From: a virus
Lineage: Duplodnaviria; Heunggongvirae; Uroviricota; Caudoviricetes
Strand: one strand, 5' to 3'
DNA length: 34,836 nt
Virus record (IMG/VR): IMGVR_UViG_2687453454_000001
Span: 1 to 34,836 of that record
The position numbers were made by a program, and so were the translations under genes. Positions 367 to 12,653 of this stretch are shown here, in pieces. Each line of letters begins with the position of its first letter. Within the stretch, counting starts at the first letter, position 1. The notes beneath the pieces were generated by a model. It had not been told where the DNA came from and ran no database searches. It saw only the letters and a list, made by a program, of their open reading frames with translations.

Positions 367-453
367 GCCCGGATGGTGGAATCGGTAGACACAAGGGATT
401 TAAAATCCCTCGGCGTTCGCGCTGTGTGGGTTCAAGTCCCACTCCGGGTACCA
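367..453 (+). tRNA. leuZ: tRNA-Leu (anticodon TAA), class II tRNA with long variable arm
   Basis: 87-nt sequence starting GCCCGGATGGTGGAATCGGTAGACACAAGGGATTTAAAATCCC and ending GGGTTCAAGTCCCACTCCGGGTACCA; anticodon loop TTTAAAA. Confidence 0.95.
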
Positions 454-581: not shown

Positions 582-1589
582 CTATTTTGCCTCTTGGCGG
601 TTATCGAACGGGTTAAGTGCTACCGCAGCATCAAGGTGGTTTGGGGCAAAATGCGCATACCTCATTGTCATCATGATCGTGCTGTGCCCGAGAATTTGCT
701 GTAACACCAAAATATTCCCACCTCGCATCATGAAGTGACTCGCGAATGTATGACGTAGTACATGGGTACGCTGTCCTTTGGGCAGCTCTATACCTGCGCG
801 TGCGAGAGCTGCCTTAAAAGCCTCGTATGCGGGTGAGAAGAGGGCACCACGCTTTTTAGGGAGCATCGCCTGTAGTTGTTGTGAAATTGGCACTGTGCGG
901 TTCTTCTTGCTTTTGGTTTGCGTAAACGTCAGACGACCAGGAAGGATTTGAGATTGCTTTAAGTCTTGAGCCTCGCTCCATCGTGCACCGGTCGCCAGAC
1001 AAATCCGTACGATAATCCCTAAATCTTTATTTGCGGACTGGTCGCATGCTGCAAGCAATCGGTCAATTTCTTCCTCATACAGAAAAGCCAGCTCCTGATC
1101 ACCTTCTTTGAACTGCCTGATTCCAGACAGCGGGTTATCTCCTTCCCATTCCCCCAGCCGCTTCATTTCCGAGAATACTGCATGCAGATAAGACTGCTCG
1201 CGGTTTACTGTCGCTTCACTCAGCTTCTTCTTGCCTTTCTGATTCCATTCACCACTCAAACGCCGTTCCCGGTATACAGCGAAAGTGTTTTTATCAAAGT
1301 GAGAAGCCAATGGATCACCAAGACGTTCGCATATGGCCAGTAATTTCACCTTTCTTTCATCACCAGATGAGAGCGTTTTGCCATGCATCTCGTACCAGCG
1401 TTCAACGAATGCCGAAAGAGTCACAGCGCTGTCGTTTACCGGCTGGTTTGCAGCGTTATTCATTAAACGGCGCTCATGGGAGAGCGCTTCACCTTTGGTA
1501 GCAAATTGCTTACGTATGCGTTTCCCATCACGCCCGTAAGGGAAACACTGACAAAGCCATTTACCGGAGGGTAGTTTTCGGACGGTCAA
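582..1589 (-). CDS. int: P2-family tyrosine integrase
   Basis: 335-aa ORF with catalytic-type motifs ATGARWSEA, HVLRHTFASH and MRYAHF; close resemblance by eye to P2 Int; adjacent to a tRNA gene. Confidence 0.9.
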   Translation of the reverse strand: MTVRKLPSGKWLCQCFPYGRDGKRIRKQFATKGEALSHERRLMNNAANQPVNDSAVTLSAFVERWYEMHGKTLSSGDERKVKLLAICERLGDPLASHFDKNTFAVYRERRLSGEWNQKGKKKLSEATVNREQSYLHAVFSEMKRLGEWEGDNPLSGIRQFKEGDQELAFLYEEEIDRLLAACDQSANKDLGIIVRICLATGARWSEAQDLKQSQILPGRLTFTQTKSKKNRTVPISQQLQAMLPKKRGALFSPAYEAFKAALARAGIELPKGQRTHVLRHTFASHFMMRGGNILVLQQILGHSTIMMTMRYAHFAPNHLDAAVALNPFDNRQEAK

Positions 1590-2464
1590 TTACTCACCTC
1601 TGCATCATCATCAGATCCTGCATACGCGAGTGAAATGAACATTTCCGCAGCGTTATCAAGATGTGCATAGGTTGATGTAAATTCGATATCTCGACACCTA
1701 CAGACGAATGGGCGCGTTTGATTTTCTGGTTGGAAGGATAAACTTACAACTGGAGTTTTGCGTGGTTTACCATTTTTGAAAAAGTTACAGACATCCAAAC
1801 GATTGCAAAGGCCTGCATCATCTTGATAAGTAGCAACATGCCACCCCATACCATGAAGTGTATCGGCAAATGCTAAATGCACTTCTTCGATATTTTTATA
1901 TAAGCCAACGGAGTATTGTTTTTTCTTACTCTCATTACGTTTTCTTGGCAGGGATGGGAGCCTTGCTACACCAGGTATTTCAATTTTTTCCAAGCTGAAT
2001 GTTTTTACCGGGTGAGTCGGAGATGATAGGTCCGCTGCTCGCAGCGTAAAGTTATCAAGCAATGTCAGAGGAAGGATATCTCTTGCTGCTCCGGATCGTT
2101 CACCTCCGTGATAAATGATTGATAAATTATCTTTGGTATCAATTGACGACCAGATCAGGTCCAGAAGAGGGTGTTCATCATGGATTGTAAATGTTGGTGT
2201 ATTGCCCTTTTGACCTTCTATATTTTGCGCATCCGACAAGGGGGATAGGTTTAGAAATTGCTCGGTCGACAGCACCTCTGAACCTTGCTGAGATGCCTTT
2301 TTTATTTTGCTCGGACCAGCATTTTCACCGCAACAGAGATAGTTAAGATCCTTGGTGACATCACTTCTAACGACATATCCACGAGCTTTAGCAATTTCAA
2401 TAAGCTCATTTTTGTCTTTTTTCCCAAAACCTGTAAAACAAATAGTCCTCATATAAAACCCCAC
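1586..2464 (-). CDS. BRCT-domain protein with WYL-like middle domain and C-terminal extension (cargo gene; function unknown)
   Basis: N-terminus TICFTGFGKKDKNELIEIAKARGYVVRSDVTKDLNYLCCGENAGPSKIKKASQQG has the BRCT pattern; the middle LSIIYHGGERSGAARDILPLTLLDNFTLRAADL...KTFSLEKIEI resembles a WYL domain. Probable ATG start at 2452 (ORF track start at 2464 is GTG). Its stop overlaps the int start by 4 nt. Local GC is lower than the phage core. Confidence 0.7.
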   Translation of the reverse strand: MGFYMRTICFTGFGKKDKNELIEIAKARGYVVRSDVTKDLNYLCCGENAGPSKIKKASQQGSEVLSTEQFLNLSPLSDAQNIEGQKGNTPTFTIHDEHPLLDLIWSSIDTKDNLSIIYHGGERSGAARDILPLTLLDNFTLRAADLSSPTHPVKTFSLEKIEIPGVARLPSLPRKRNESKKKQYSVGLYKNIEEVHLAFADTLHGMGWHVATYQDDAGLCNRLDVCNFFKNGKPRKTPVVSLSFQPENQTRPFVCRCRDIEFTSTYAHLDNAAEMFISLAYAGSDDDAEVSN

Positions 2465-2468
2465 GAAG

Positions 2469-3098
2469 TCAGAAAAATAATGAACCTAACAGGAAACCAA
2501 TTAAGAAGATGACAATGAATTCTTTCGCGTGGGATCGCAGCAATGTAGTGACATCCAATGGAGAGTGATTCTCTCTCGGGGGAGAAGGCGGAATATCTTG
2601 TGTTTGCTGGTCCAGCCACGATAAACACATTTGAAGCTGGTTGCGTGTTAGGTCATTCAGTCGACCAGTTCCGAAGTTAACATGGCAATAACGAATCAGT
2701 TTCTGCCTCAATTCGCTGTCTTCACTATTTCGAAGGAGAAGGCTAACAAGTGCTTTACTTGCATCTTTATCCTTAGCGCGTTCGAGCATGGACTGCAAAA
2801 AGCTAACTGCAGTCTGATATTGGTTGACGGTCATTTCTTCGATACTCGAAACGCCAATCTCTGCATGCAGCTTTTGCCAGATCTCATATGCTTCATTGCC
2901 GTAGGAATCAGAAACAAGTGCTACTAGGGCATTAAGTTCTTTTCTCTGCGCCCTAACCAAAGGACGCTCATCGTGAGTATCTGAGGGAATCGCAATGTTG
3001 ATGGTGTGACGGCCATCAAATTTATCGATCTGAACGCGGTTTTCTGTGAAGTCGCGTCCAGCGGTGCGGTTTTGATCTCCAGAGGAATTCACTTCCAT
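2469..3098 (-). CDS. hypothetical protein with C-terminal transmembrane anchor (cargo gene)
   Basis: 209-aa ORF; C-terminus FIVIFLIGFLLGSLFF is a hydrophobic helix; GGGAAG RBS-like sequence about 5 nt upstream of the ATG; starts 13 bp after the repressor stop and ends 4 bp before the BRCT gene. Confidence 0.6.
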   Translation of the reverse strand: MEVNSSGDQNRTAGRDFTENRVQIDKFDGRHTINIAIPSDTHDERPLVRAQRKELNALVALVSDSYGNEAYEIWQKLHAEIGVSSIEEMTVNQYQTAVSFLQSMLERAKDKDASKALVSLLLRNSEDSELRQKLIRYCHVNFGTGRLNDLTRNQLQMCLSWLDQQTQDIPPSPPRENHSPLDVTTLLRSHAKEFIVIFLIGFLLGSLFF

Positions 3099-3111: not shown

Positions 3112-3501
3112 TTATTTTTTTTCGTTGTAATCCCTGCCAGCCACTCGGTTGCCATTTCCTGACACATTGACTGAGTTTGAGACGGAGTTGCCAGCCGTTA
3201 AGGCTGCAAATACAGCAGCTTTGATGGCTAATGGGGCGTTTCTGAAATGATTAATTAGATCATGCTCGTCCCGTGTTAGTGCAACACCACCAGATTCTTG
3301 CCCTGTCAAAATGAACTGGACGTTAGCCCCATTGAGGGCGAAGGAACGCAAAACATTGCCGCCGGGAACGGCAGCGCCTCGCTCATACTTCCCCCAAATT
3401 TCTCTGGATATACCGCAAAGTTCTGCAATGGAGGCTTGATTAAAGCCCAATCTTTTCCGTTCATTTTTCAATCTGATAGCGCATTGAGAATCAAAGTTCA
3501 T
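3112..3501 (-). CDS. prophage immunity repressor (HTH, XRE/CI-like)
   Basis: Helix-turn-helix signature RLKNERKRLGFNQASIAELCGISREIWGKYERG; divergent from the early operon as for P2 C / 186 cI. Start chosen at the ATG at 3501 because the upstream in-frame starts (3537, GTG 3555) overlap the promoter/operator; the maximal ORF is 3112..3555. Confidence 0.7.
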   Translation of the reverse strand: MNFDSQCAIRLKNERKRLGFNQASIAELCGISREIWGKYERGAAVPGGNVLRSFALNGANVQFILTGQESGGVALTRDEHDLINHFRNAPLAIKAAVFAALTAGNSVSNSVNVSGNGNRVAGRDYNEKK

Positions 3502-3511
3502 AAAACACCGT

Positions 3512-3540
3512 TTGACAATGAGAACTATTGTTCTCATACT
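3512..3540 (+). promoter_or_regulatory. candidate early (lytic) promoter with overlapping palindromic operator
   Basis: TTGACA at 3512-3517, 17-bp spacer, CATACT at 3535-3540; the spacer holds the palindrome ATGAGAAC-TATT-GTTCTCAT (3518-3537). Confidence 0.5.
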
Positions 3541-3578
3541 GTTTTCCACAGACACTTAGCAGATCACAATATACCACT

Positions 3579-3791
3579 ATGACACAAGCACAAAACACAC
3601 AGCGGGCGCGTACGCCCAAAAACAGCGTAGCGGGAGGGTCTTTACCGCTACGTCTGTCACCTGAAGAACGCACTGAAATTGAAGCAATGGCAGAGGCTGA
3701 ATGTCGATCTGCTTCAAACATGGTTCGCATAGTTTTTTTGCGCGGGCTTGAGTGCATGAAATCCACACATTTGCCGCAATCTGGTAACTGA
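3579..3791 (+). CDS. small early-operon protein, possible ribbon-helix-helix regulator
   Basis: First ORF of the plus-strand early operon; motif RLSPEERTEIEAMAEAECRSASNMVR resembles RHH DNA-binding proteins; start uncertain (ATG 3579 has a weak RBS; ORF track starts at TTG 3528). Confidence 0.4.
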   Translation: MTQAQNTQRARTPKNSVAGGSLPLRLSPEERTEIEAMAEAECRSASNMVRIVFLRGLECMKSTHLPQSGN

Positions 3792-3811: not shown

Positions 3812-4015
3812 ATGACGGGCGTGACCATCAATATGAATGTTGCTGCTCCTTATGTATCTCTCAAGGAGTATTCCAGACTAACCGGCATTCCATTCGACAC
3901 ATGCAGGTTAATGGTTCGCGACGGAAGGATAATTATCAGACCTAAAGAGCTATCAGGGGGCAAGGTAGAAGTAAACATGATAGCCATGCTCAAGGATGCA
4001 ATAGCCAATAGCTAA
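3812..4015 (+). CDS. Cox-like small DNA-binding protein (putative excisionase / switch regulator)
   Basis: 67 aa; GAGGT RBS-like sequence at 3803-3807; PYVSLKEYSRLTGIPFDTCRLMVRDGRI resembles the P2 Cox HTH region as I recall it. Confidence 0.5.
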   Translation: MTGVTINMNVAAPYVSLKEYSRLTGIPFDTCRLMVRDGRIIIRPKELSGGKVEVNMIAMLKDAIANS

Positions 4016-4588: not shown

Positions 4589-4756
4589 ATGACAATTCAA
4601 AAAAATGACCGCGCTCACCTGCTTGGGTTGTTACGTATCAAATTAAACCTTATGAAGAAAGAAAAGCTTTCCACTAATGAAATTTACCGCAGCCTGGAAG
4701 ATTGGATCGGCAACAGAGAACAGGTAGCAGTAAACAAGGAGCGTAAAAATGGTTAA
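4589..4756 (+). CDS. small hypothetical protein (55 aa), not in the ORF track
   Basis: ATG at 4589 preceded by GAGG; uninterrupted frame to a TAA that overlaps the methylase start. Confidence 0.35.
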   Translation: MTIQKNDRAHLLGLLRIKLNLMKKEKLSTNEIYRSLEDWIGNREQVAVNKERKNG

Positions 4757-5711
4757 CTCCCCTCTTATTTGGGTGGGCGGCAAGTCTCGCGCTATGTCGC
4801 ATGTGCTTGATGCTTTGCCCCACGGTGAATGCCTGGTTGAGCCTTTCGTGGGAAGCGGTAGCGTCTTCCTGAACACTGATTACAAAACCTATGTTCTCTG
4901 CGATAGCAATGCAGCGCTGATTAATTTCTTTTCAATGGTTAAACGTAATACCGAGGAGCTTTTAACTGCTTCCGCAAAGATATTCGAAAAGGGTAATAAT
5001 GAGATTATATACTATGAATATCGCGACGAATTTAATGTAATCAATCGTGAGTTTAAATATGACCGCCGAAAATATAATGATGAAACGTTAGTTAGATATG
5101 CGGCGCTGTTCCTTTATTTAAACCGCCATTGCTATAACGGTGTATATCGCGTTAATTTGAAAAATGAATTCAACGTTCCTTTTGGTTTTCGTAAGAAGCC
5201 AATTTTCCCTGTGGCTGAGATTCAGCATTTTGCTAAAAGAGCGTGGGAAAAGGGGGCTATGTTCCTGCATGGTGATTTCAGAGCAACAATCCCGCTGGCG
5301 ATTGGTCATTCGGGCTCCGTGGTTTATTGCGATCCGCCATACCTGCCAGCTAGCGAAACTGCGAATTTTACGGCTTACGGCAAGCCATTTACCGATGCAG
5401 ATCACCGCACCTTGGTTGCGATGCTTTCACGCCTCTACAACAACGCAAAAATACCATCTGTCATATCTGGCAGTGACACACCAGAGACGCACCAAATTTA
5501 TTACCCGTTCACCCTAAAAGCTTTCGACGTTCGGCGCTCAGTGGGGGCCAAAACTCGCAACCTTGCTGGCGAGGTTATAGGTACTCTGTGTGTCTGCGAT
5601 TGCTGTGGGAGTGTGGGCGGTGGCTGTCCTGATTGTGGGGCGGTGATGGGCGATGCGACTTATTCAGAAATGGTCGCTTCTGGTGCTTTTGAAGATCAGG
5701 AGGTGTTCTGA
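4749..5711 (+). CDS. DNA N6-adenine methyltransferase (Dam family) with Cys-rich C-terminal tail
   Basis: N-terminal IWVGGKS, SAM-binding EPFVGSGSVFLN and catalytic YCDPPY motifs; C-terminal CVCDCCGSVGGGCPDCG cluster. Confidence 0.85.
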   Translation: MVNSPLIWVGGKSRAMSHVLDALPHGECLVEPFVGSGSVFLNTDYKTYVLCDSNAALINFFSMVKRNTEELLTASAKIFEKGNNEIIYYEYRDEFNVINREFKYDRRKYNDETLVRYAALFLYLNRHCYNGVYRVNLKNEFNVPFGFRKKPIFPVAEIQHFAKRAWEKGAMFLHGDFRATIPLAIGHSGSVVYCDPPYLPASETANFTAYGKPFTDADHRTLVAMLSRLYNNAKIPSVISGSDTPETHQIYYPFTLKAFDVRRSVGAKTRNLAGEVIGTLCVCDCCGSVGGGCPDCGAVMGDATYSEMVASGAFEDQEVF

Positions 5712-8450: not shown

Positions 8451-8828
8451 CTACTCGAGCGTTAGTTGCTCGGGACTGCATTTGTACAGTGTAGCTAGCC
8501 GTTCAAGGTTGTCTTTGCGAGGACGCTCAGACTTTTCGAACTCGGACACTGTAGATTGCTTAATTCCCAGCGCTTCAGCGACTTGTTTTTGCGTCAAGCC
8601 TCTGTAAACACGCCATGCAGCCTGCATGGTGCAACCCTTCTCAGAAAGAATGTTGATAACTTCGTTTGGGTATCGAACGTTATCAGATGTGCCGGTTTCG
8701 TTTTGAACAGGCTCGTATAACTCTGCGATATCACTATCACGGGTCAGTTTTTCGAACAGTTCAATCGGCACGACAGCAGAAATTCTTTTCCCTCTACTGT
8801 CTGTGATGAATTGAATGTTAGCCATCAC
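8451..8828 (-). CDS. HTH (XRE-type) protein, putative antitoxin
   Basis: 125 aa; C-terminal HTH LTQKQVAEALGIKQSTVSEFEKSER; lies downstream of the RelE/ParE-like gene on the same strand. Confidence 0.6.
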   Translation of the reverse strand: MMANIQFITDSRGKRISAVVPIELFEKLTRDSDIAELYEPVQNETGTSDNVRYPNEVINILSEKGCTMQAAWRVYRGLTQKQVAEALGIKQSTVSEFEKSERPRKDNLERLATLYKCSPEQLTLE

Positions 8829-9011
8829 TCTTTAGTCCTACGTAGATTGTTAAAAAACAAAGATTTTTAACTTATGCGTCTTCGACTGCGTAGACCACTT
8901 GATATAATTTTTGGCATCTAAATACTCCTAATTGGTTGATTGAAATTAAAAATTTTTTTTCTTCAACATCTACCGTTTGAGTTGACGGGGCGGGGTTTCC
9001 CCCGCCACTCA

Positions 9012-9290
9012 TCAATATGTCGTGGACGTTCGGCGCAAGATGCGCTGAATCTCGATCACTACAGGGGCATTGTTGCTTAAGGCATACAACACTCTGTAAT
9101 TCCCAACCCTCAGTCGATACTTACCATCACTATCAGTGAGCTTTTTAACATCAAGCCCCTTCAGGTCAGGATATGACTGCATCGCGTTAACCTTCTCGCG
9201 AACAGCTTTTTGATCTTTTGATGGTAGCGAGCGTAAGTCCTTAACGGCCTTACCAGTCCATTGAATGTTTGTCGTCATGACGAACCTCAA
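9012..9290 (-). CDS. RelE/ParE-superfamily toxin-like protein
   Basis: 92 aa; GKYRLRVGNYRVLYALSNNAPVVIEIQRILRR matches the RelE/ParE core pattern. Confidence 0.65.
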   Translation of the reverse strand: MRFVMTTNIQWTGKAVKDLRSLPSKDQKAVREKVNAMQSYPDLKGLDVKKLTDSDGKYRLRVGNYRVLYALSNNAPVVIEIQRILRRTSTTY

Positions 9291-9411: not shown

Positions 9412-9798
9412 GTGAGTGATACGGTGAATTTTGATGGGCTTTCACGGCAGGAAAAGCGAGAACTGGCACAGCGGTTTAGTGACGTTGTTCGAAGCAAACT
9501 TAAAACACGTCCACCGGAACGAGAAGAAGGGGCTGGACTATCGGTGAAGGAGCTTATAACTAAAGAACTACTTGAGCTATGTGGGATTGATGCCTGTGTC
9601 GGGATGATAAAATCAATAGTACCGGGAACGCATATTGGCTATATCGATCTGATTTTTGAGATCGAAGATGGACGTCTAGCGTTCAAAATTTGCTCAGAAA
9701 CAAACTTCAATGTTGCTACTAAACAAAAGATGGCGAACATTTTAGATAGAGATAGAATACTAAAAAGGTTGAAGCAAGCTTTGTTTACAAATGGATAG
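9412..9798 (+). CDS. hypothetical protein (128 aa), first gene of the AT-rich cargo pair
   Basis: ORF with GTG start at 9412 (alternative GTG at 9424); GC falls along the gene; ends 20 bp before the 944-aa ORF. Confidence 0.5.
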   Translation: MSDTVNFDGLSRQEKRELAQRFSDVVRSKLKTRPPEREEGAGLSVKELITKELLELCGIDACVGMIKSIVPGTHIGYIDLIFEIEDGRLAFKICSETNFNVATKQKMANILDRDRILKRLKQALFTNG

Positions 9799-9818
9799 GG
9801 CAAAAAAGATGCCTCGTT

Positions 9819-12653
9819 ATGTGTGTCGTTATTTACCACAAATTGGGATTGGTTATGAGCATTATGAAAATAGAAGTAAAAGGTAAGCCAAAAGGAGCAG
9901 TCATTTATATCAATGTCAAGAAAACCATAGCTTTTTATTTGACGATTTCAATTTTAATTCTGCTTGGGATGTATTTATCACGTTTTTGTTCTGTGCCATA
10001 TAAATATTTATTGATTAGCCCATCTTTTTATAATAATCCATATCTTAATTGGATAACTGGTGTTTGGGGTAGTTTTTTAGGCATGCACGGTACTATAGCT
10101 GCTTTGTCTATAACTTTTATGGGAATGTTTGTCGATCAGGTTTCAAAGACATCTGAACATGGTTTTGAGCATTTATCGAAAGTCTTATTGCTAAGAGAGT
10201 ATGATTTTTTAGGATTTAGTGTTGAATCAGTGTGTAGTCTATTATGTGGCGTTTTTTTACTTCTCATTGGTAGTGGCTTGATTGGATATTTAATTTCATC
10301 TTTACTTTCTTTATTTTTTATCACTAAATATGGCATTATGTATTATAGACTTTACCATTTAACAGAAGAACCCGGAGTTATTAATGGGATTTTATTAGAT
10401 TCTATCAGGACAACAGGCATCAAGTATAATGAGATTAACAAACAACGACAGATTCTTGCTAACGAGTTTTCTCAAGTAATATCGGGAGGTGATTACTACA
10501 GTGATGATCAAAGTGCCTTCTATTGGAATGATGATGCGATAACGATAAATATTTTTCCTGATGACACTGATGTGGTTATTTCTGGATACAATCCAAACAT
10601 ATTTAATCAGCTTTCGGTAAAGATTAAAGAATTTAATTTGAACCATCCGCCTATCTTGCTTTTCTCTTTATCATTCTTATCACCCATATCAAATTCCTCA
10701 ATGAAAATCATTCCATCTAATAAATCTGATTTGACAGAGGAGCATATTTCATCAATTGAATCAATTTTGAGGAAAGGGCTGATATTTAGTTCTGTTCCTT
10801 ATGTTTTTAATGAGTTTAAACAATTTGAAGAAGCTCTTGTAGTAAACGTCAGAAACAGTTTGCTGAATGGTGATGAGTGGACGTTAGATTTTGGAGTGCG
10901 TATTTTTTATGAACTAACTTCAAATGATAACTATATCTACACTCTAAAGAATATAGATTTGTCAATTACGTCCTCTAATACTAAAGATGTGGTGAAAACA
11001 TCTTTGTTTGCAAGTTATTTTGAAAAAATGATACGTGAGGCTTATAATCAGAGTAATCTTGAAAAGGCTGCTAATATAATGCGGTCGTTAATAGACCTAG
11101 CGAGATATATTTATGGTAAGAATAACTTTGTCGATTTTTATAAAAGGATTTTTAGACAATTTGACCATAGGGTAAAGTATCGTGCAGAAGAATCAAATTA
11201 TGTTTTTTTAGATCTGTATACATCCACTGTGCTGCACAACCTAGTATATAAGAATTATGCGGCTTTCAAAGTTGATACTGAGTTTGTGACGCGTAGATTG
11301 CAGTATCTAGATCTTAGCAATAAAACAGAACATGATTCATTGAATGAAATGCAACGTAAGATATTACGTTTATTATTTGAAGTTATATCCTTGCTAATTA
11401 TGCGAATAGAGCATGTGAAGGCGAAGGGTGAAGAACGCAAAGAGGAACTCAACGAATTAATCATTTCATTGAAGTCTTGGGTAAATGCTAAATTTTTGCA
11501 GGAATTATATTACAAAAAAGAGCTTTACGATGTGTTGTTTACTATACCTCAAGAGTTTTCGGTATTCGGTGCAGAAACTAAAATTCGAGAAATACCAGAT
11601 GGTGAAGCGACATGGAGATCAGTTTCGAACGATACTTATAAGATGATCGCATTCGTTCTTACGCAAAGCTCTTTCAACAATAATCAATTGAATCTTTTAT
11701 TTGTTAGAGATGCATTTCAATTTAAAAATGCTACGTCAATATTAACCCGCGAATTAAGTTCTATAATAGATTACATAGAGGGTGAATCTTTCTCTAAATT
11801 ATTTAAATTGATAACTGAAAAGGATTTGGTCGAAGATAGTAATAAAAAAACAGTAGTTGAGAAGTTGGAGTCGATTATTTCCTCGCAAAATTCTTTAGTG
11901 CTGCGCAGTGTGATCGAATCAGAATTAGAGCCTTCATTGGTTGATAAATATAGTAACGAGATCATACATTCTGTGGAGAAGCTATTTGAGCTAATTTTGC
12001 CATTGGAAGCAATTCCTTTAGAGATTGGATTCAATGGGATCGAATCACATCTATTAATTAATAAAAGAGAGGTGCTCCCCCCAATTGATGGTGTTTCTTA
12101 TGGAATGAACATTCATAACCATAGTCAGTGGTTAATATATGAATGGATCAGGAGTGTATTAAACAGTATTGATATAAATGCTGTGGAGGTTATCACTATT
12201 GATGACCCACAAGATTTGCCAACCGAAAAATTAGTTACCATAGAATATCAAGTTGAAGATAGAGTTAACACTTTTAGGCATTCTCGAGGTTTAAAAATTA
12301 ATGATAAGGAAGGCCATTTGAATTTGAATGGTTCTGGCTTGTATTATTTGGATTTATTAAATAACTTTAATTTAAAAAAATCAAAAGAAATACTAACGGT
12401 TAACATAGAAAAGATATTTGAAGGAAATATTGAAATGGTTAAAGGACGATATGATTTTGATAATGATAATCCTTATCTATATTCAATTTTAAATGTCGTT
12501 TTTAACATTGTTGCCATACCAAATATGATATGTAAACTTTATTTTCTATCGGAAGATAAATGTCTGTTAATCAATCAAAAACAAGAAAGAGAGATGGAGC
12601 AATTAATTAAAGGGAACAGAACGGAGAATCCTGATAACAGTAATGTATCTTAA
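9819..12653 (+). CDS. large AT-rich membrane-anchored protein of unknown function (944 aa)
   Basis: Uninterrupted 2.8-kb ORF in very AT-rich DNA; N-terminal hydrophobic helices (TIAFYLTISILILLGMYL, WITGVWGSFLGMHGTIAALSITFMGMFV, VCSLLCGVFLLLIGSGLIGYLISSLLSLFFI) then about 750 aa of soluble sequence; alternative starts at 9855 and 9864. Confidence 0.7.
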   Translation: MCVVIYHKLGLVMSIMKIEVKGKPKGAVIYINVKKTIAFYLTISILILLGMYLSRFCSVPYKYLLISPSFYNNPYLNWITGVWGSFLGMHGTIAALSITFMGMFVDQVSKTSEHGFEHLSKVLLLREYDFLGFSVESVCSLLCGVFLLLIGSGLIGYLISSLLSLFFITKYGIMYYRLYHLTEEPGVINGILLDSIRTTGIKYNEINKQRQILANEFSQVISGGDYYSDDQSAFYWNDDAITINIFPDDTDVVISGYNPNIFNQLSVKIKEFNLNHPPILLFSLSFLSPISNSSMKIIPSNKSDLTEEHISSIESILRKGLIFSSVPYVFNEFKQFEEALVVNVRNSLLNGDEWTLDFGVRIFYELTSNDNYIYTLKNIDLSITSSNTKDVVKTSLFASYFEKMIREAYNQSNLEKAANIMRSLIDLARYIYGKNNFVDFYKRIFRQFDHRVKYRAEESNYVFLDLYTSTVLHNLVYKNYAAFKVDTEFVTRRLQYLDLSNKTEHDSLNEMQRKILRLLFEVISLLIMRIEHVKAKGEERKEELNELIISLKSWVNAKFLQELYYKKELYDVLFTIPQEFSVFGAETKIREIPDGEATWRSVSNDTYKMIAFVLTQSSFNNNQLNLLFVRDAFQFKNATSILTRELSSIIDYIEGESFSKLFKLITEKDLVEDSNKKTVVEKLESIISSQNSLVLRSVIESELEPSLVDKYSNEIIHSVEKLFELILPLEAIPLEIGFNGIESHLLINKREVLPPIDGVSYGMNIHNHSQWLIYEWIRSVLNSIDINAVEVITIDDPQDLPTEKLVTIEYQVEDRVNTFRHSRGLKINDKEGHLNLNGSGLYYLDLLNNFNLKKSKEILTVNIEKIFEGNIEMVKGRYDFDNDNPYLYSILNVVFNIVAIPNMICKLYFLSEDKCLLINQKQEREMEQLIKGNRTENPDNSNVS

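Follow-up and report, generated by a model that had tools for sequence, protein, structure and literature searches.

Here we describe two genes, ORF1 and ORF2, of a P2-like E. coli prophage residing at leuZ, where they belong to the operon that runs from the repressor to the integrase gene and are expressed in the lysogen. As judged from its predicted domains, ORF1 is a member of the WYL sensor class that lacks a helix-turn-helix (HTH) domain, while ORF2 is a tail-anchored membrane protein whose N-terminus carries a copy of the C-terminal tail of the phage repressor. We tentatively favour, at less than even chances, a reading in which ORF1 is a ligand-gated sensor of single-stranded DNA (ssDNA) or DNA ends that acts on the lysogeny switch via protein contacts.

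Organization of the lysogeny operon

Both ORFs are located on the minus strand of the window (the whole stretch of 34,836 nt that was analysed), between the genes of an HTH repressor and a tyrosine integrase (Table 1). A first-pass annotation had placed them inside the repressor-int operon, and the spacing of the genes confirms this: the stop codon of the repressor gene is separated from the ORF2 start by 13 nt, the ORF2 stop from the ORF1 start by 16 nt, and the int start and ORF1 stop overlap by 4 nt. Such tight packing leaves no space for internal terminators, and a single operon is therefore a sound inference from the sequence. The start of ORF1 was assigned to ATG 2452, because the alignment of its family begins at MKTICFTGF. 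The alternative GTG codon at 2464, given in the ORF listing, lies 4 nt from the ORF2 stop and yields a protein of 292 aa, whose frame is used here to number ORF1 residues. In 8 identical E. coli genomes the RefSeq annotation is also identical, describing ORF1 as a 'BRCT domain-containing protein' and ORF2 as a 'membrane protein'; the repressor start in RefSeq is at 3537, as compared with ATG 3501 here.

The repressor was recognized by Pfam HTH_31 (E 1.6e-6) and by an RstR-type NCBIfam model (E 1.6e-8), and no S24 peptidase domain was found in it by the domain search. Opposite it lies a rightward operon with Arc-like/Cox-like genes. In full genomes, pgsA/uvrC flank the prophage on one side and, in related prophages, yecA is found on the other; the prophage is situated near the fliA/fliC flagellar region. 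The four-gene arrangement is conserved in a lineage of leuZ-resident P2-like prophages and is thus not peculiar to this phage. The first-pass view would have been contradicted had the pair proved to be core genes with an established role in lysogeny; no such function has been established for either gene, and on this ground the view is not refuted.

Low local GC content had also been ascribed to both genes. ORF1 has 41.5% and ORF2 45.1%; late genes of the phage have a GC content of 56.0%, the early and immunity region as a whole is at about 46%, and so only ORF1 deviates locally.

Table 1. Features of the lysogeny operon and of the attachment site (positions in the window)
Feature	Position	Strand	Remarks
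tRNA-Leu(taa), prophage attachment site	367-453	+	last in a Gly-Cys-Leu tRNA cluster
P2-type tyrosine integrase (int)	582-1589	-	Pfam Int_N E 9e-32, Phage_integrase E 2.5e-25
ORF1, BRCT-WYL-WCX-like protein	1586-2452	-	288 aa from ATG 2452
ORF1 C-terminal alpha/beta domain, WCX position	1595-1897	-	residues about 190-290; AF2 pLDDT 79-90
ORF1 WYL domain	1970-2176	-	residues about 97-165; family profile and fold
ORF1 BRCT domain	2249-2449	-	residues 6-72; closest to BRCTs of LigA and RFC1
ORF2, tail-anchored inner-membrane protein	2469-3098	-	209 aa; phrog_5825 E 3e-88
ORF2 C-terminal TM anchor	2472-2531	-	residues about 190-209; hydrophobic stretch EFIVIFLIGFLLGSLFF; AF2 helix 191-208
ORF2 Flk_N-like helical cytoplasmic domain	2589-2966	-	residues about 45-170; NCBIfam, homologue alignment, AF2
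ORF2 N-terminal motif NSSGDQNRTAGRDFTE	3042-3089	-	copy of the repressor tail motif; 56-69% amino-acid identity within loci
CI/Xre-type HTH repressor	3112-3501	-	129 aa from ATG 3501; opens the leftward lysogeny operon
Repressor C-terminal tail motif NVSGNGNRVAGRDYNE	3121-3168	-	followed by KK and the stop codon

ORF1 combines a BRCT domain with a WYL region

The domain order originally proposed for ORF1 (BRCT, WYL and a C-terminal extension) was borne out, the two named domains being recognized in different ways. BRCT was detected directly by Pfam (PF00533; 32.6 bits, E 9.6e-8, gathering cut-off 21.3 bits), and the predicted structure shows the alpha/beta fold of this domain. The WYL model (PF13280) did not match ORF1 alone at E values up to 1, and the eponymous motif is degenerate, reading 'FTL'. 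The assignment of this domain is supported solely by the family profile and by the fold (DriD, BrxR, CapW). A search of PDB with the family profile identified the WYL domain of DriD (E 7.6e-6) and BrxR (E 1.7e-3), PF13280 is matched by 42 of the 123 family members (best E 4.8e-8), and the member P0167 scores 28.6 bits, above the cut-off of 21.8 bits.

The WYL region of ORF1 is predicted to form an SH3-like beta-barrel preceded by a helix, with the order alpha1-beta2-beta3-beta4-beta5, i.e. the topology of the DriD WYL domain. Residues Y168, R178, R204 and W206, by which DriD contacts ssDNA, correspond to Y118, R128, K154 and F156 of ORF1, all of which are invariant or nearly so across the family; the equivalents of DriD Y192, R176 and R207 (T140, A126 and S157, respectively) are not retained. 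The C-terminal domain, which stands where WCX, the dimerisation domain, would be, contains invariant FKNGKPRK and RP motifs and ends with a long helix. Foldseek alignments of ORF1 to the C-domain of DriD span 160 of about 192 residues, and the order of strands and helices is unlike that of the DriD WCX domain. No HTH family was detected in ORF1 by Pfam or NCBIfam, and the N-terminus is occupied by BRCT. The earlier suggestion that the protein resembles BrxR/CapW-type regulators with BRCT in the position of the HTH has thus stood, and can be extended to DriD.

ORF2 carries a copy of the repressor tail

ORF2 is composed of a disordered N-terminal peptide, a helical Flk_N domain and a transmembrane (TM) helix. 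The last of these had been correctly predicted as the single C-terminal membrane helix (residues 191-208 of 209), and the anchor is present in all 22 aligned homologues. The Flk_N domain had been overlooked. ORF2 matches the NCBIfam Flk model over residues 39-173 (E 2e-17), with a score of 63.4 bits that does not reach the 353-bit cut-off of this equivalog (NF007987); PF27202 (Flk_N) is precomputed for all ORF2 homologues, and residues 49-168 were modelled by AF2 with pLDDT above 90. A fold search of PDB with ORF2 gave no significant match, and Stl of SaPI2, the best one, was set aside (E 0.5). Weak similarity to PHROGs of Ant-type antirepressors (phrog_245, E 4.6e-6; phrog_2127, E 3.5e-3) is confined to residues about 47-143.

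The N-terminal peptide of ORF2 repeats the motif with which the repressor ends. Within loci, the two copies share 56-69% of their amino acids, and five lineages have the motif in both places. On the repressor, it is kept in every examined lineage that has a Flk-like gene, although the repressors are merely 35-74% identical; the Gibbsiella repressor lacks the motif, and its locus also lacks a Flk-like gene. Within-locus pairs are 56-81% identical at codon positions 1 and 2 and only 25-44% identical at position 3, which indicates that the motif is selected at the protein level and excludes a DNA-level repeat as its source. Fusion of the repressor with ORF2 by read-through or frameshifting was also rejected: the ORFs are in frame in Klebsiella and out of frame in the window. 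Residues G7, N10, G14, D16, E19 and N20 of ORF2 are invariant in the 22 homologues. A comparable motif is shared by the tail of a related repressor and a two-TM protein at another locus (L045). ORF2 accompanies the repressor in the examined E. coli, Klebsiella, Salmonella and endosymbiont lineages, and about a tenth of complete E. coli genomes, O157:H7 among them, encode a tail-anchored Flk-like protein that bears the repressor-tail copy.

The presence of the Flk_N domain could also mean that the operon contains two unrelated morons: ORF2, a Flk mimic altering flagellar type III export (as lysogenic conversion or as protection against flagellotropic phages), and ORF1, a DNA-repair helper. Flk is itself anchored at its C-terminus, so that ORF2 shares with it both the domain and the tail-anchored topology; moreover, the flagellar genes are close to the prophage, and ORF1 and ORF2 occur independently of each other (see below). 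We nevertheless regard this explanation as improbable, considering the low score and limited extent of the Flk match, the joint presence or absence of ORF2 and the repressor tail motif, and the location of its densest invariant residues in the tail-like peptide, i.e. outside the Flk-homologous region.

ORF1 is an exchangeable cassette

The two genes had been viewed as a pair of cargo genes. In the case of ORF1 this is appropriate, since a DUF2511 gene replaces it on a near-identical repressor/ORF2/int backbone, with the breakpoint exactly at the int start; ORF2, by contrast, stays with the repressor whose tail motif it copies. Among 5,426 E. coli genomes, the DUF2511 variant (~500 genomes) is about 60-fold more frequent than the ORF1 variant (8 genomes). 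ORF1 was found without ORF2 in Gibbsiella and at locus L039, and ORF2 without ORF1 in O157; therefore they do not form an obligate pair. The repressor has exchanged its HTH half at two loci (L022 and L023), while the tail, ORF2, ORF1 and int remain 88-98% identical, which makes these elements independent of operator specificity. In a set of 50,697 phage records, no full-length ORF1 homologue was found, and ORF2 was represented by one decayed copy (Escherichia phage 520873).

Cassette behaviour of this kind would also fit a role of ORF1, alone or with a membrane partner such as ORF2, as superinfection exclusion or anti-phage defence cargo that senses or blocks invading DNA. The BRCT domain would then recognise nicks or 5'-phosphate ends, and the WYL domain ssDNA, with cohesive ends or replication intermediates of incoming phage DNA as possible targets; ORF1 might, for example, compete with LigA at cos ends, and its BRCT is closest in sequence to those of LigA (and RFC1). 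We regard this role as the main rival of the reading favoured above and as only slightly less likely than it. The role agrees with the exchangeability of ORF1, which has the lowest GC content of the operon, with its rare and patchy occurrence in E. coli, and with its divergence, which is faster than that of int (48-72% versus 71-91% identity). Furthermore, the DUF2511 protein occupying the same slot is secreted and recalls Glo, a periplasmic exclusion/immunity protein of the P2-like phage K139 (the position of glo in K139 was reportedly described by Nesper et al. in 1999). The int-primase interval has been counted as a minor defence hotspot of P2 (2026 preprint), and WYL domains are strongly tied to defence systems (PMC9122601). 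On the other hand, an effector domain is absent, PADLOC-DB 2.0 gave for ORF1 only a match of the BRCT end to PDC-S48 (E 3.5e-6, residues 7-73), and the mimicry of the repressor tail by ORF2 would be left unexplained. Neither ORF2 nor either of two stand-alone WYL-WCX proteins searched against the same database had a hit.

Stand-alone WYL-WCX proteins of other temperate phages

The WYL part of ORF1 belongs to a family of 864 representatives, most of which are stand-alone proteins with no other domain; these begin right at the WYL helix, and no HTH was detected in them. In unrelated temperate phages and genomes, a stand-alone WYL-WCX gene is often located directly 3' of a short, HTH-only CI/Xre repressor gene, in many cases preceding int. 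This order (repressor, WYL, int) is seen at L039, whose repressor matches Phage_CI_repr (E 4e-22), and the repressor-then-WYL position recurs at L041, L045/L083, L034/L075, L063 and L081; at L072 the WYL and repressor genes overlap. The defence explanation does not account for the frequency with which, in phages other than the P2-like ones, a short HTH gene is followed or overlapped by the WYL gene, nor is it favoured by the finding that a WYL protein is the sole extra gene between repressor and int at L039 and in Gibbsiella. What does speak for it is that some family members are fused to, or encoded beside, TM or zinc-ribbon-TM proteins (P0158, P0180, L060, L062, L064, L063 and L072). A neighbour at L033 was rejected as a relative of ORF2, to which its similarity is not significant; it is a Rha/ORF6N protein.

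The recurrent proximity to int raises a further possibility, namely that ORF1 is a translationally coupled accessory factor of the integrase, which helps or gates site-specific recombination (integration or excision) at leuZ, e.g. by binding DNA structure at att or by binding Int. The gene adjoins int in the window, in Klebsiella, Salmonella and Gibbsiella, at L039 and L045, and in PY3, the one isolated phage with a WYL-family member. The 4-nt overlap and the position of the cassette breakpoint are compatible with such a role, as is a BRCT-only protein encoded in the CI-int interval of Vibrio phage PV94. However, closely similar integrases function with DUF2511 or with nothing in the slot, many family members have no integrase nearby, and adjacency to int is expected of any insert at the distal end of the operon. 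An integrase factor is, in our opinion, very unlikely.

A possible role in prophage induction

We return to the reading that we tentatively favour, that of a sensor acting on the lysogeny switch; its ligand, its protein partners and its effect on induction are what we infer. All WYL-WCX proteins characterised so far switch an HTH under the control of ssDNA (PMC9186387, PMC11662680, PMC11804915). ORF1, which would be always present in the lysogen, may act as a ligand-gated sensor of single-stranded or gapped/5'-phosphate DNA. Lacking a domain with which to bind an operator, it would pass on its signal by contacting other proteins, as a 'split' CapW/DriD for which the short CI-type repressor, encoded immediately upstream, provides the HTH in trans. 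Such an arrangement could couple DNA damage to the lysis-lysogeny (or excision) switch independently of RecA, in a P2-like prophage that is not wired to the SOS response. No LexA box (CTGT-N8-ACAG) and no homologue of Tum or of the 'derepression protein' of the O157 prophage was found in the window; given also that the repressor has no peptidase domain, no other route of induction was seen. ORF2 would be a membrane-tethered companion of the repressor at the inner membrane. Because its disordered N-terminal peptide mimics the repressor tail, it probably competes for, or pairs with, the binding partner of this tail, and might in this way tether or buffer repressor activity at the membrane.

The domains and contact residues of ORF1, its lack of an HTH, the recurrent position of the WYL gene, the tail mimicry and the independence from immunity type all point in this direction; the similarity of ORF2 to Ant PHROGs was counted as a weak hint. 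Several observations count against it: ORF1 is dispensable for the backbone, with the DUF2511 variant being far commoner in E. coli; ORF1 and ORF2 are not an obligate pair; the membrane anchors or zinc-ribbon-TM proteins to which some family members are fused, or beside which they are encoded, would suit a membrane-located sensor of incoming DNA no less well; and the int-repressor interval is a known slot for accessory genes in temperate phages (K139 glo). In addition, the repressor of PV94 is a two-domain CI, and that adjoining the WYL-family gene of PY3 is annotated as LexA-family, so that PY3 may have an induction route of its own.

In its broadest form, the proposal would be that the HTH-less WYL sensor constitutes, together with the repressor and its tail-mimicking membrane protein, a previously undescribed RecA/LexA-independent prophage switch. 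In this switch the WYL protein would read ssDNA or DNA ends directly and signal to a non-cleavable CI-type repressor by contacting proteins, with a membrane-anchored tail decoy buffering the availability of that repressor; the stand-alone WYL-WCX family would more generally supply temperate phages with sensor subunits that act in trans on short HTH repressors. We consider this generalization decidedly doubtful.

So far, WYL-WCX sensors are understood in one capacity only, that of the ligand-binding half of a single-chain transcription factor. The locus reveals a large uncharacterised WYL family without the DNA-binding half, present in prophage lysogeny modules and fused, in one lineage, to a DNA-ligase-type BRCT. 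Our literature search concerning BRCT+WYL proteins in prophages, WYL proteins in prophage induction and Flk in prophages found nothing relevant. Should ORF1 gate the repressor or the integrase, this would account for the sensing of DNA damage by P2-like prophages without SOS wiring and would reveal an induction switch of a new class; should it serve in defence or exclusion instead, it would represent an effector-less, DNA-structure-reading type that is missing from current defence catalogues. The tail mimicry of ORF2 offers a concrete clue, cheap to test, as to how a phage repressor might be controlled post-translationally.

Comparison with known systems

ORF1 shares with DriD, CapW, BrxR and PafBC the strand order of the WYL domain, part of the ssDNA contacts known from DriD (the four core positions named above) and a further domain at the WCX position. 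Like these proteins, it probably works as a ligand-gated allosteric switch, most likely with ssDNA as the ligand. It differs from the wHTH-WYL-WCX regulators in that the winged HTH is replaced by BRCT (or, in most family members, by nothing), so the DNA-binding output would have to come in trans. Its C-terminal domain departs in topology from the WCX of DriD, and its gene belongs to the repressor-int operon of a prophage instead of neighbouring a defence or DNA-damage regulon.

The BRCT domain of ORF1 is matched best, in both sequence and fold, by those of LigA and RFC1, with which it has the TG and G(P)SK signature positions in common; BRCTs of this subclass recognise nicks or 5'-phosphate ends in DNA and not phosphopeptides. 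Unlike them, the ORF1 domain is not joined to a ligase, exonuclease or clamp loader, and its binding of DNA ends is putative. ORF2 resembles Flk in having a Flk_N helical domain, a cytoplasmic body and a single C-terminal membrane helix, yet it is shorter (209 aa versus about 330 aa), falls far under the NCBIfam equivalog cut-off, carries the additional N-terminal peptide copied from the repressor tail and is encoded in a prophage immunity module.

As regards its location, the pair is comparable to K139 glo and to the prophage-mediated defence genes of mycobacteriophages, which lie in the repressor-integrase interval: the slot, the lysogenic promoter, the cassette organization and the membrane or secreted partners are the same, whereas the sequences are unrelated and no effector is recognised in the present pair. 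The proposed logic, inactivation of a non-cleavable repressor via protein contacts, is that of Tum of phage 186, Ant of P22 and epsilon of P4. These known antirepressors are encoded outside the repressor operon and are silent in the lysogen, being controlled by LexA or by the repressor. ORF1 and ORF2, in contrast, are co-transcribed with the repressor, and any control that they exert would therefore be allosteric or post-translational.

Organization of the repressor-int region

The prophage is a P2-like (Peduoviridae) element of E. coli, inserted at tRNA-Leu, one of the genes of a Gly-Cys-Leu tRNA cluster; in complete genomes it adjoins pgsA/uvrC. Its repressor, ORF2, ORF1 and int genes are four minus-strand ORFs arranged head to tail, separated by 13 nt and then 4-16 nt, with a 4-nt overlap between ORF1 and int. 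This confirms the first-pass annotation, which placed two tightly packed genes between repressor and integrase; judging from such packing, ORF2 and ORF1 are probably co-transcribed with both. A rightward Arc-like/Cox-like operon lies opposite the leftward repressor gene, and this face-to-face arrangement is the layout of the P2/186 switch. The GC content of ORF1 (41.5%) and ORF2 (45.1%) is, as had been claimed, below that of the phage core (late genes, 56.0%); the values for the repressor, int and the remaining early region are 46.4%, 49.2% and 45.7%, respectively.

Features of the prophage and of the comparison loci
Feature	Position	Strand	Remarks
Integrase	582-1589	-	335 aa
ORF1	1586-2452	-	288 aa from ATG; 292 aa from GTG at 2464
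ORF2	2469-3098	-	209 aa
HTH repressor	3112-3501	-	129 aa counted from ATG at 3501
Region corresponding to the repressor exchange in loci L022/L023	3150-3540
Sigma-70-like promoter match	3512-3540		TTGACA-17-CATACT
Arc/MetJ-like ORF	3528-3791	+	ribbon-helix-helix sequence, upstream of Cox-like gene
Cox-like gene	3812-4015
Dam-type methyltransferase ORF	4749-5711	+	320 aa, intact
HTH antitoxin-like gene	8451-8828	-	paired with toxin
ParE/RelE-family toxin	9012-9290	-	Pfam E 1.7e-7; pair spans 8451-9290
Low-GC block	9412-12653	+	128-aa and 944-aa ORFs
L065, E. coli O157:H7 TW14359	5998-7445		repressor-tail/Flk-like pair, DUF2511 in ORF1 slot
L066, Vibrio phage PV94	2504-3040		BRCT-only protein, 178 aa
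L039			Phage_CI_repr, then WYL, then int
L045/L083	3302-6835		short repressor, then WYL
L063	4486-6396		short repressor, then WYL
L041, L034/L075, L035, L081			short repressor, then WYL
L072	3628-5100		HTH and WYL genes overlap, then zinc-ribbon-TM gene

The Arc/MetJ-like ORF has no RefSeq annotation in strain EC26, and the related phage 520873 carries an "Arc-like repressor" at the equivalent position. The Dam-type methyltransferase has a Cys-rich C-terminal tail (CVCDCCGSVGGGCPDCG), and its counterpart in EC26 is an incomplete pseudogene according to RefSeq. The interval that separates gpA, the replication gene, from the portal gene is the main known defence hotspot of P2; it contains the pair of toxin and antitoxin-like genes and a block of 30-37% GC (50-56% in its surroundings), whose two ORFs gave no match in Pfam or PADLOC; we regard this block as a candidate for an uncharacterised defence gene.

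ORF1 combines BRCT and WYL domains and lacks an HTH

ORF1 contains a BRCT domain, a WYL domain and a further domain in the position of WCX, and is devoid of any domain that reads DNA sequence. The Pfam WYL model did not match the ORF1 sequence itself; the ORF1-family profile matched WYL structures of DriD, BrxR and their relatives, all over one stretch, and a profile built from 123 wider homologues (42 of which match PF13280 directly) matched the DriD WYL domain with an E value of 7.6e-6. The predicted order of a helix and four strands is that of the DriD domain. Using the published list of ssDNA-contacting residues of DriD (PMC9186387) and the HMM alignment, we placed these contacts on ORF1 (292-aa frame). 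DriD Y168, R178, R204 and W206 correspond to Y118, R128, K154 and F156, in columns with no or almost no variation across the family. Y192, R176 and R207 are not retained, and the WYL motif reads FTL. Residues ~190-290 are confidently modelled as an alpha/beta domain whose last element is a long helix, with invariant FKNGKPRK and RP motifs; this domain is equivalent to the DriD WCX in position but differs from it in topology.

Using the WYL and C-terminal part in an exhaustive profile search, we retrieved 864 representatives with E values up to 1e-3, including 130 with E values up to 1e-30. In most cases the protein stands alone, is 175-210 aa long and has no other domain; BRCT fusions are a small minority, and a few members (proteins P0158 and P0180, and those of loci L060, L064 and L062) have C-terminal zinc ribbons and/or membrane helices. 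In P0158, WYL-WCX is fused with a double zinc ribbon and TM helices. Among IMG/VR and genome loci, a stand-alone WYL gene is repeatedly found immediately behind the gene of a short, HTH-only CI/Xre repressor, and in many cases ahead of an integrase gene. Since some contexts show no phage genes, this association is frequent but not universal. Two isolated phages have related arrangements: in Pseudoalteromonas phage PY3, int and a LexA-type repressor flank a WYL-WCX-plus-extension gene, and Vibrio phage PV94 carries its BRCT-only gene between CI and int.

Unrelated temperate elements (L045/L083, L072 and L063) follow the same operon logic: each combines a stand-alone WYL-WCX gene with a short HTH repressor and a membrane protein of the two-TM or zinc-ribbon-TM type, and L045 and L063 also have an integrase. 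BRCT domains 42-50% identical to that of ORF1 occur in other P2-like phages (hits H11 and H15-H28; PV94); in Escherichia (Cartapus, 500465-1), Yersinia and Burkholderia phages their genes are located outside the CI-int interval and are left hypothetical or annotated as exonuclease or ligase.

ORF2 shares a motif with the repressor tail

ORF2 contains a Pfam Flk_N domain (precomputed annotation) and partially matches the NCBIfam Flk model over residues 39-173 (63 bits; cut-off 353). In its AF2 model, residues 1-45 are disordered, 49-168 form a confident helical domain and 191-208 a terminal membrane helix, which bears out the earlier description of a tail-anchored protein. A short motif is common to the C-terminus of the repressor, ...NVSGNGNRVAGRDYNEKK, and the N-terminus of ORF2, MEVNSSGDQNRTAGRDFTEN. 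The same pair is found in Klebsiella, Salmonella, two E. coli lineages and an endosymbiont, among repressors that are just 35-74% identical, and six-frame translations of all loci examined gave no further occurrence of the pattern. Gibbsiella has neither an ORF2 gene nor the repressor tail motif. Because the two copies agree at codon positions 1 and 2 and not at position 3, selection acts on the motif peptide. In two IMG/VR loci, L022 and L023, a different immunity type has replaced the HTH half of the repressor together with its promoter region, while identity to the window is still 88-98% for the repressor tail, ORF2, ORF1 and int; the joint lies at or just upstream of the sequence coding for the tail motif. 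Given this exchange and the recurring, or jointly absent, motif pair, ORF2 looks like a companion of the C-terminal module of the repressor, independent of operator specificity. A distant Thalassobium-type phage (L045/L083) has a related repressor whose Gly/Ser-rich tail reappears at the N-terminus of the following gene's product, a two-TM protein. It is improbable that ORF1 and ORF2 are two unrelated morons, with ORF2 for instance mimicking Flk and acting on flagellar export.

ORF1 is an exchangeable cassette

The gene order (repressor, Flk-like, BRCT-WYL, int) is conserved at the same attachment site in Klebsiella pneumoniae (where it is very common), Salmonella, E. coli and others, and is no one-off. 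The P2-like prophage of O157:H7 at leuZ/yecA instead contains repressor, Flk-like gene, a DUF2511 gene encoding a secreted protein of 115 aa, and int. Compared with L012, an ORF1-bearing E. coli locus, its DNA is 85% identical over the repressor gene and the greater part of the Flk-like gene, then shows no similarity, and is 94.8% identical from the first base of int. The DUF2511 variant was found in 504-521 of the 5,426 complete E. coli genomes, the ORF1 variant of the window in eight and that of L012 in none. Each of ORF1 and ORF2 also occurs without the other. The exchange of ORF1 for DUF2511 on a similar backbone therefore identifies ORF1 as a cassette in the int-proximal slot and ORF2 as a gene belonging with the repressor, so that of the two cargo genes originally proposed only ORF1 deserves the name. 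The early operon of L065 also includes a gene annotated as "derepression protein", which has no homologue in the window.

Such exchange with a secreted protein, together with the low GC content and patchy distribution of ORF1, its membrane-anchored WYL relatives and the known capacity of the repressor-int interval to house accessory genes, fits exclusion or defence expressed in the lysogen. This main competing explanation is in our view nearly as probable as the function favoured below; it is weakened by the absence of an effector, and it leaves the tail mimicry unexplained. An integrase-accessory role for ORF1, the int-proximal gene, has little probability.

Proposed function and comparison with known systems

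The anatomy of the locus is well established and the family is large, but the function is an inference. We tentatively favour the possibility that ORF1 is a trans-acting sensor subunit of the prophage switch. Characterised WYL-WCX modules all gate an HTH in response to ssDNA (PMC9186387, PMC11662680, PMC11804915), and here the HTH is on a neighbouring polypeptide. The repressor, moreover, has no cleavage domain, and neither a LexA box nor a Tum-like gene was found in the window. Finally, an allosteric sensor must be made constitutively together with its target, and the gene order meets precisely this need. ORF1 would be a dimeric ssDNA sensor, whose BRCT domain may add affinity for nicks or 5'-phosphate ends and whose output would pass through protein contacts. 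The tail-mimic peptide of ORF2 would tether, or compete for, the partner of the repressor tail at the membrane.

In the literature searched, no BRCT-WYL protein is described, nor a WYL-WCX protein that lacks an HTH and is encoded in a lysogeny operon, nor any Flk-like protein of a phage; ORF1 and ORF2 are not among the systems listed in PADLOC, and in PHROGs both fall solely into families of unknown function. The initial comparison of ORF1 with BrxR/CapW-type sensors, with BRCT replacing the HTH, was correct for the architecture; the HTH is, however, the defining feature of that regulator family, and ORF1 lacks it. ORF1 belongs to a kind already known, the WYL sensors, and the tail mimicry is a second, unexplained feature of this locus.
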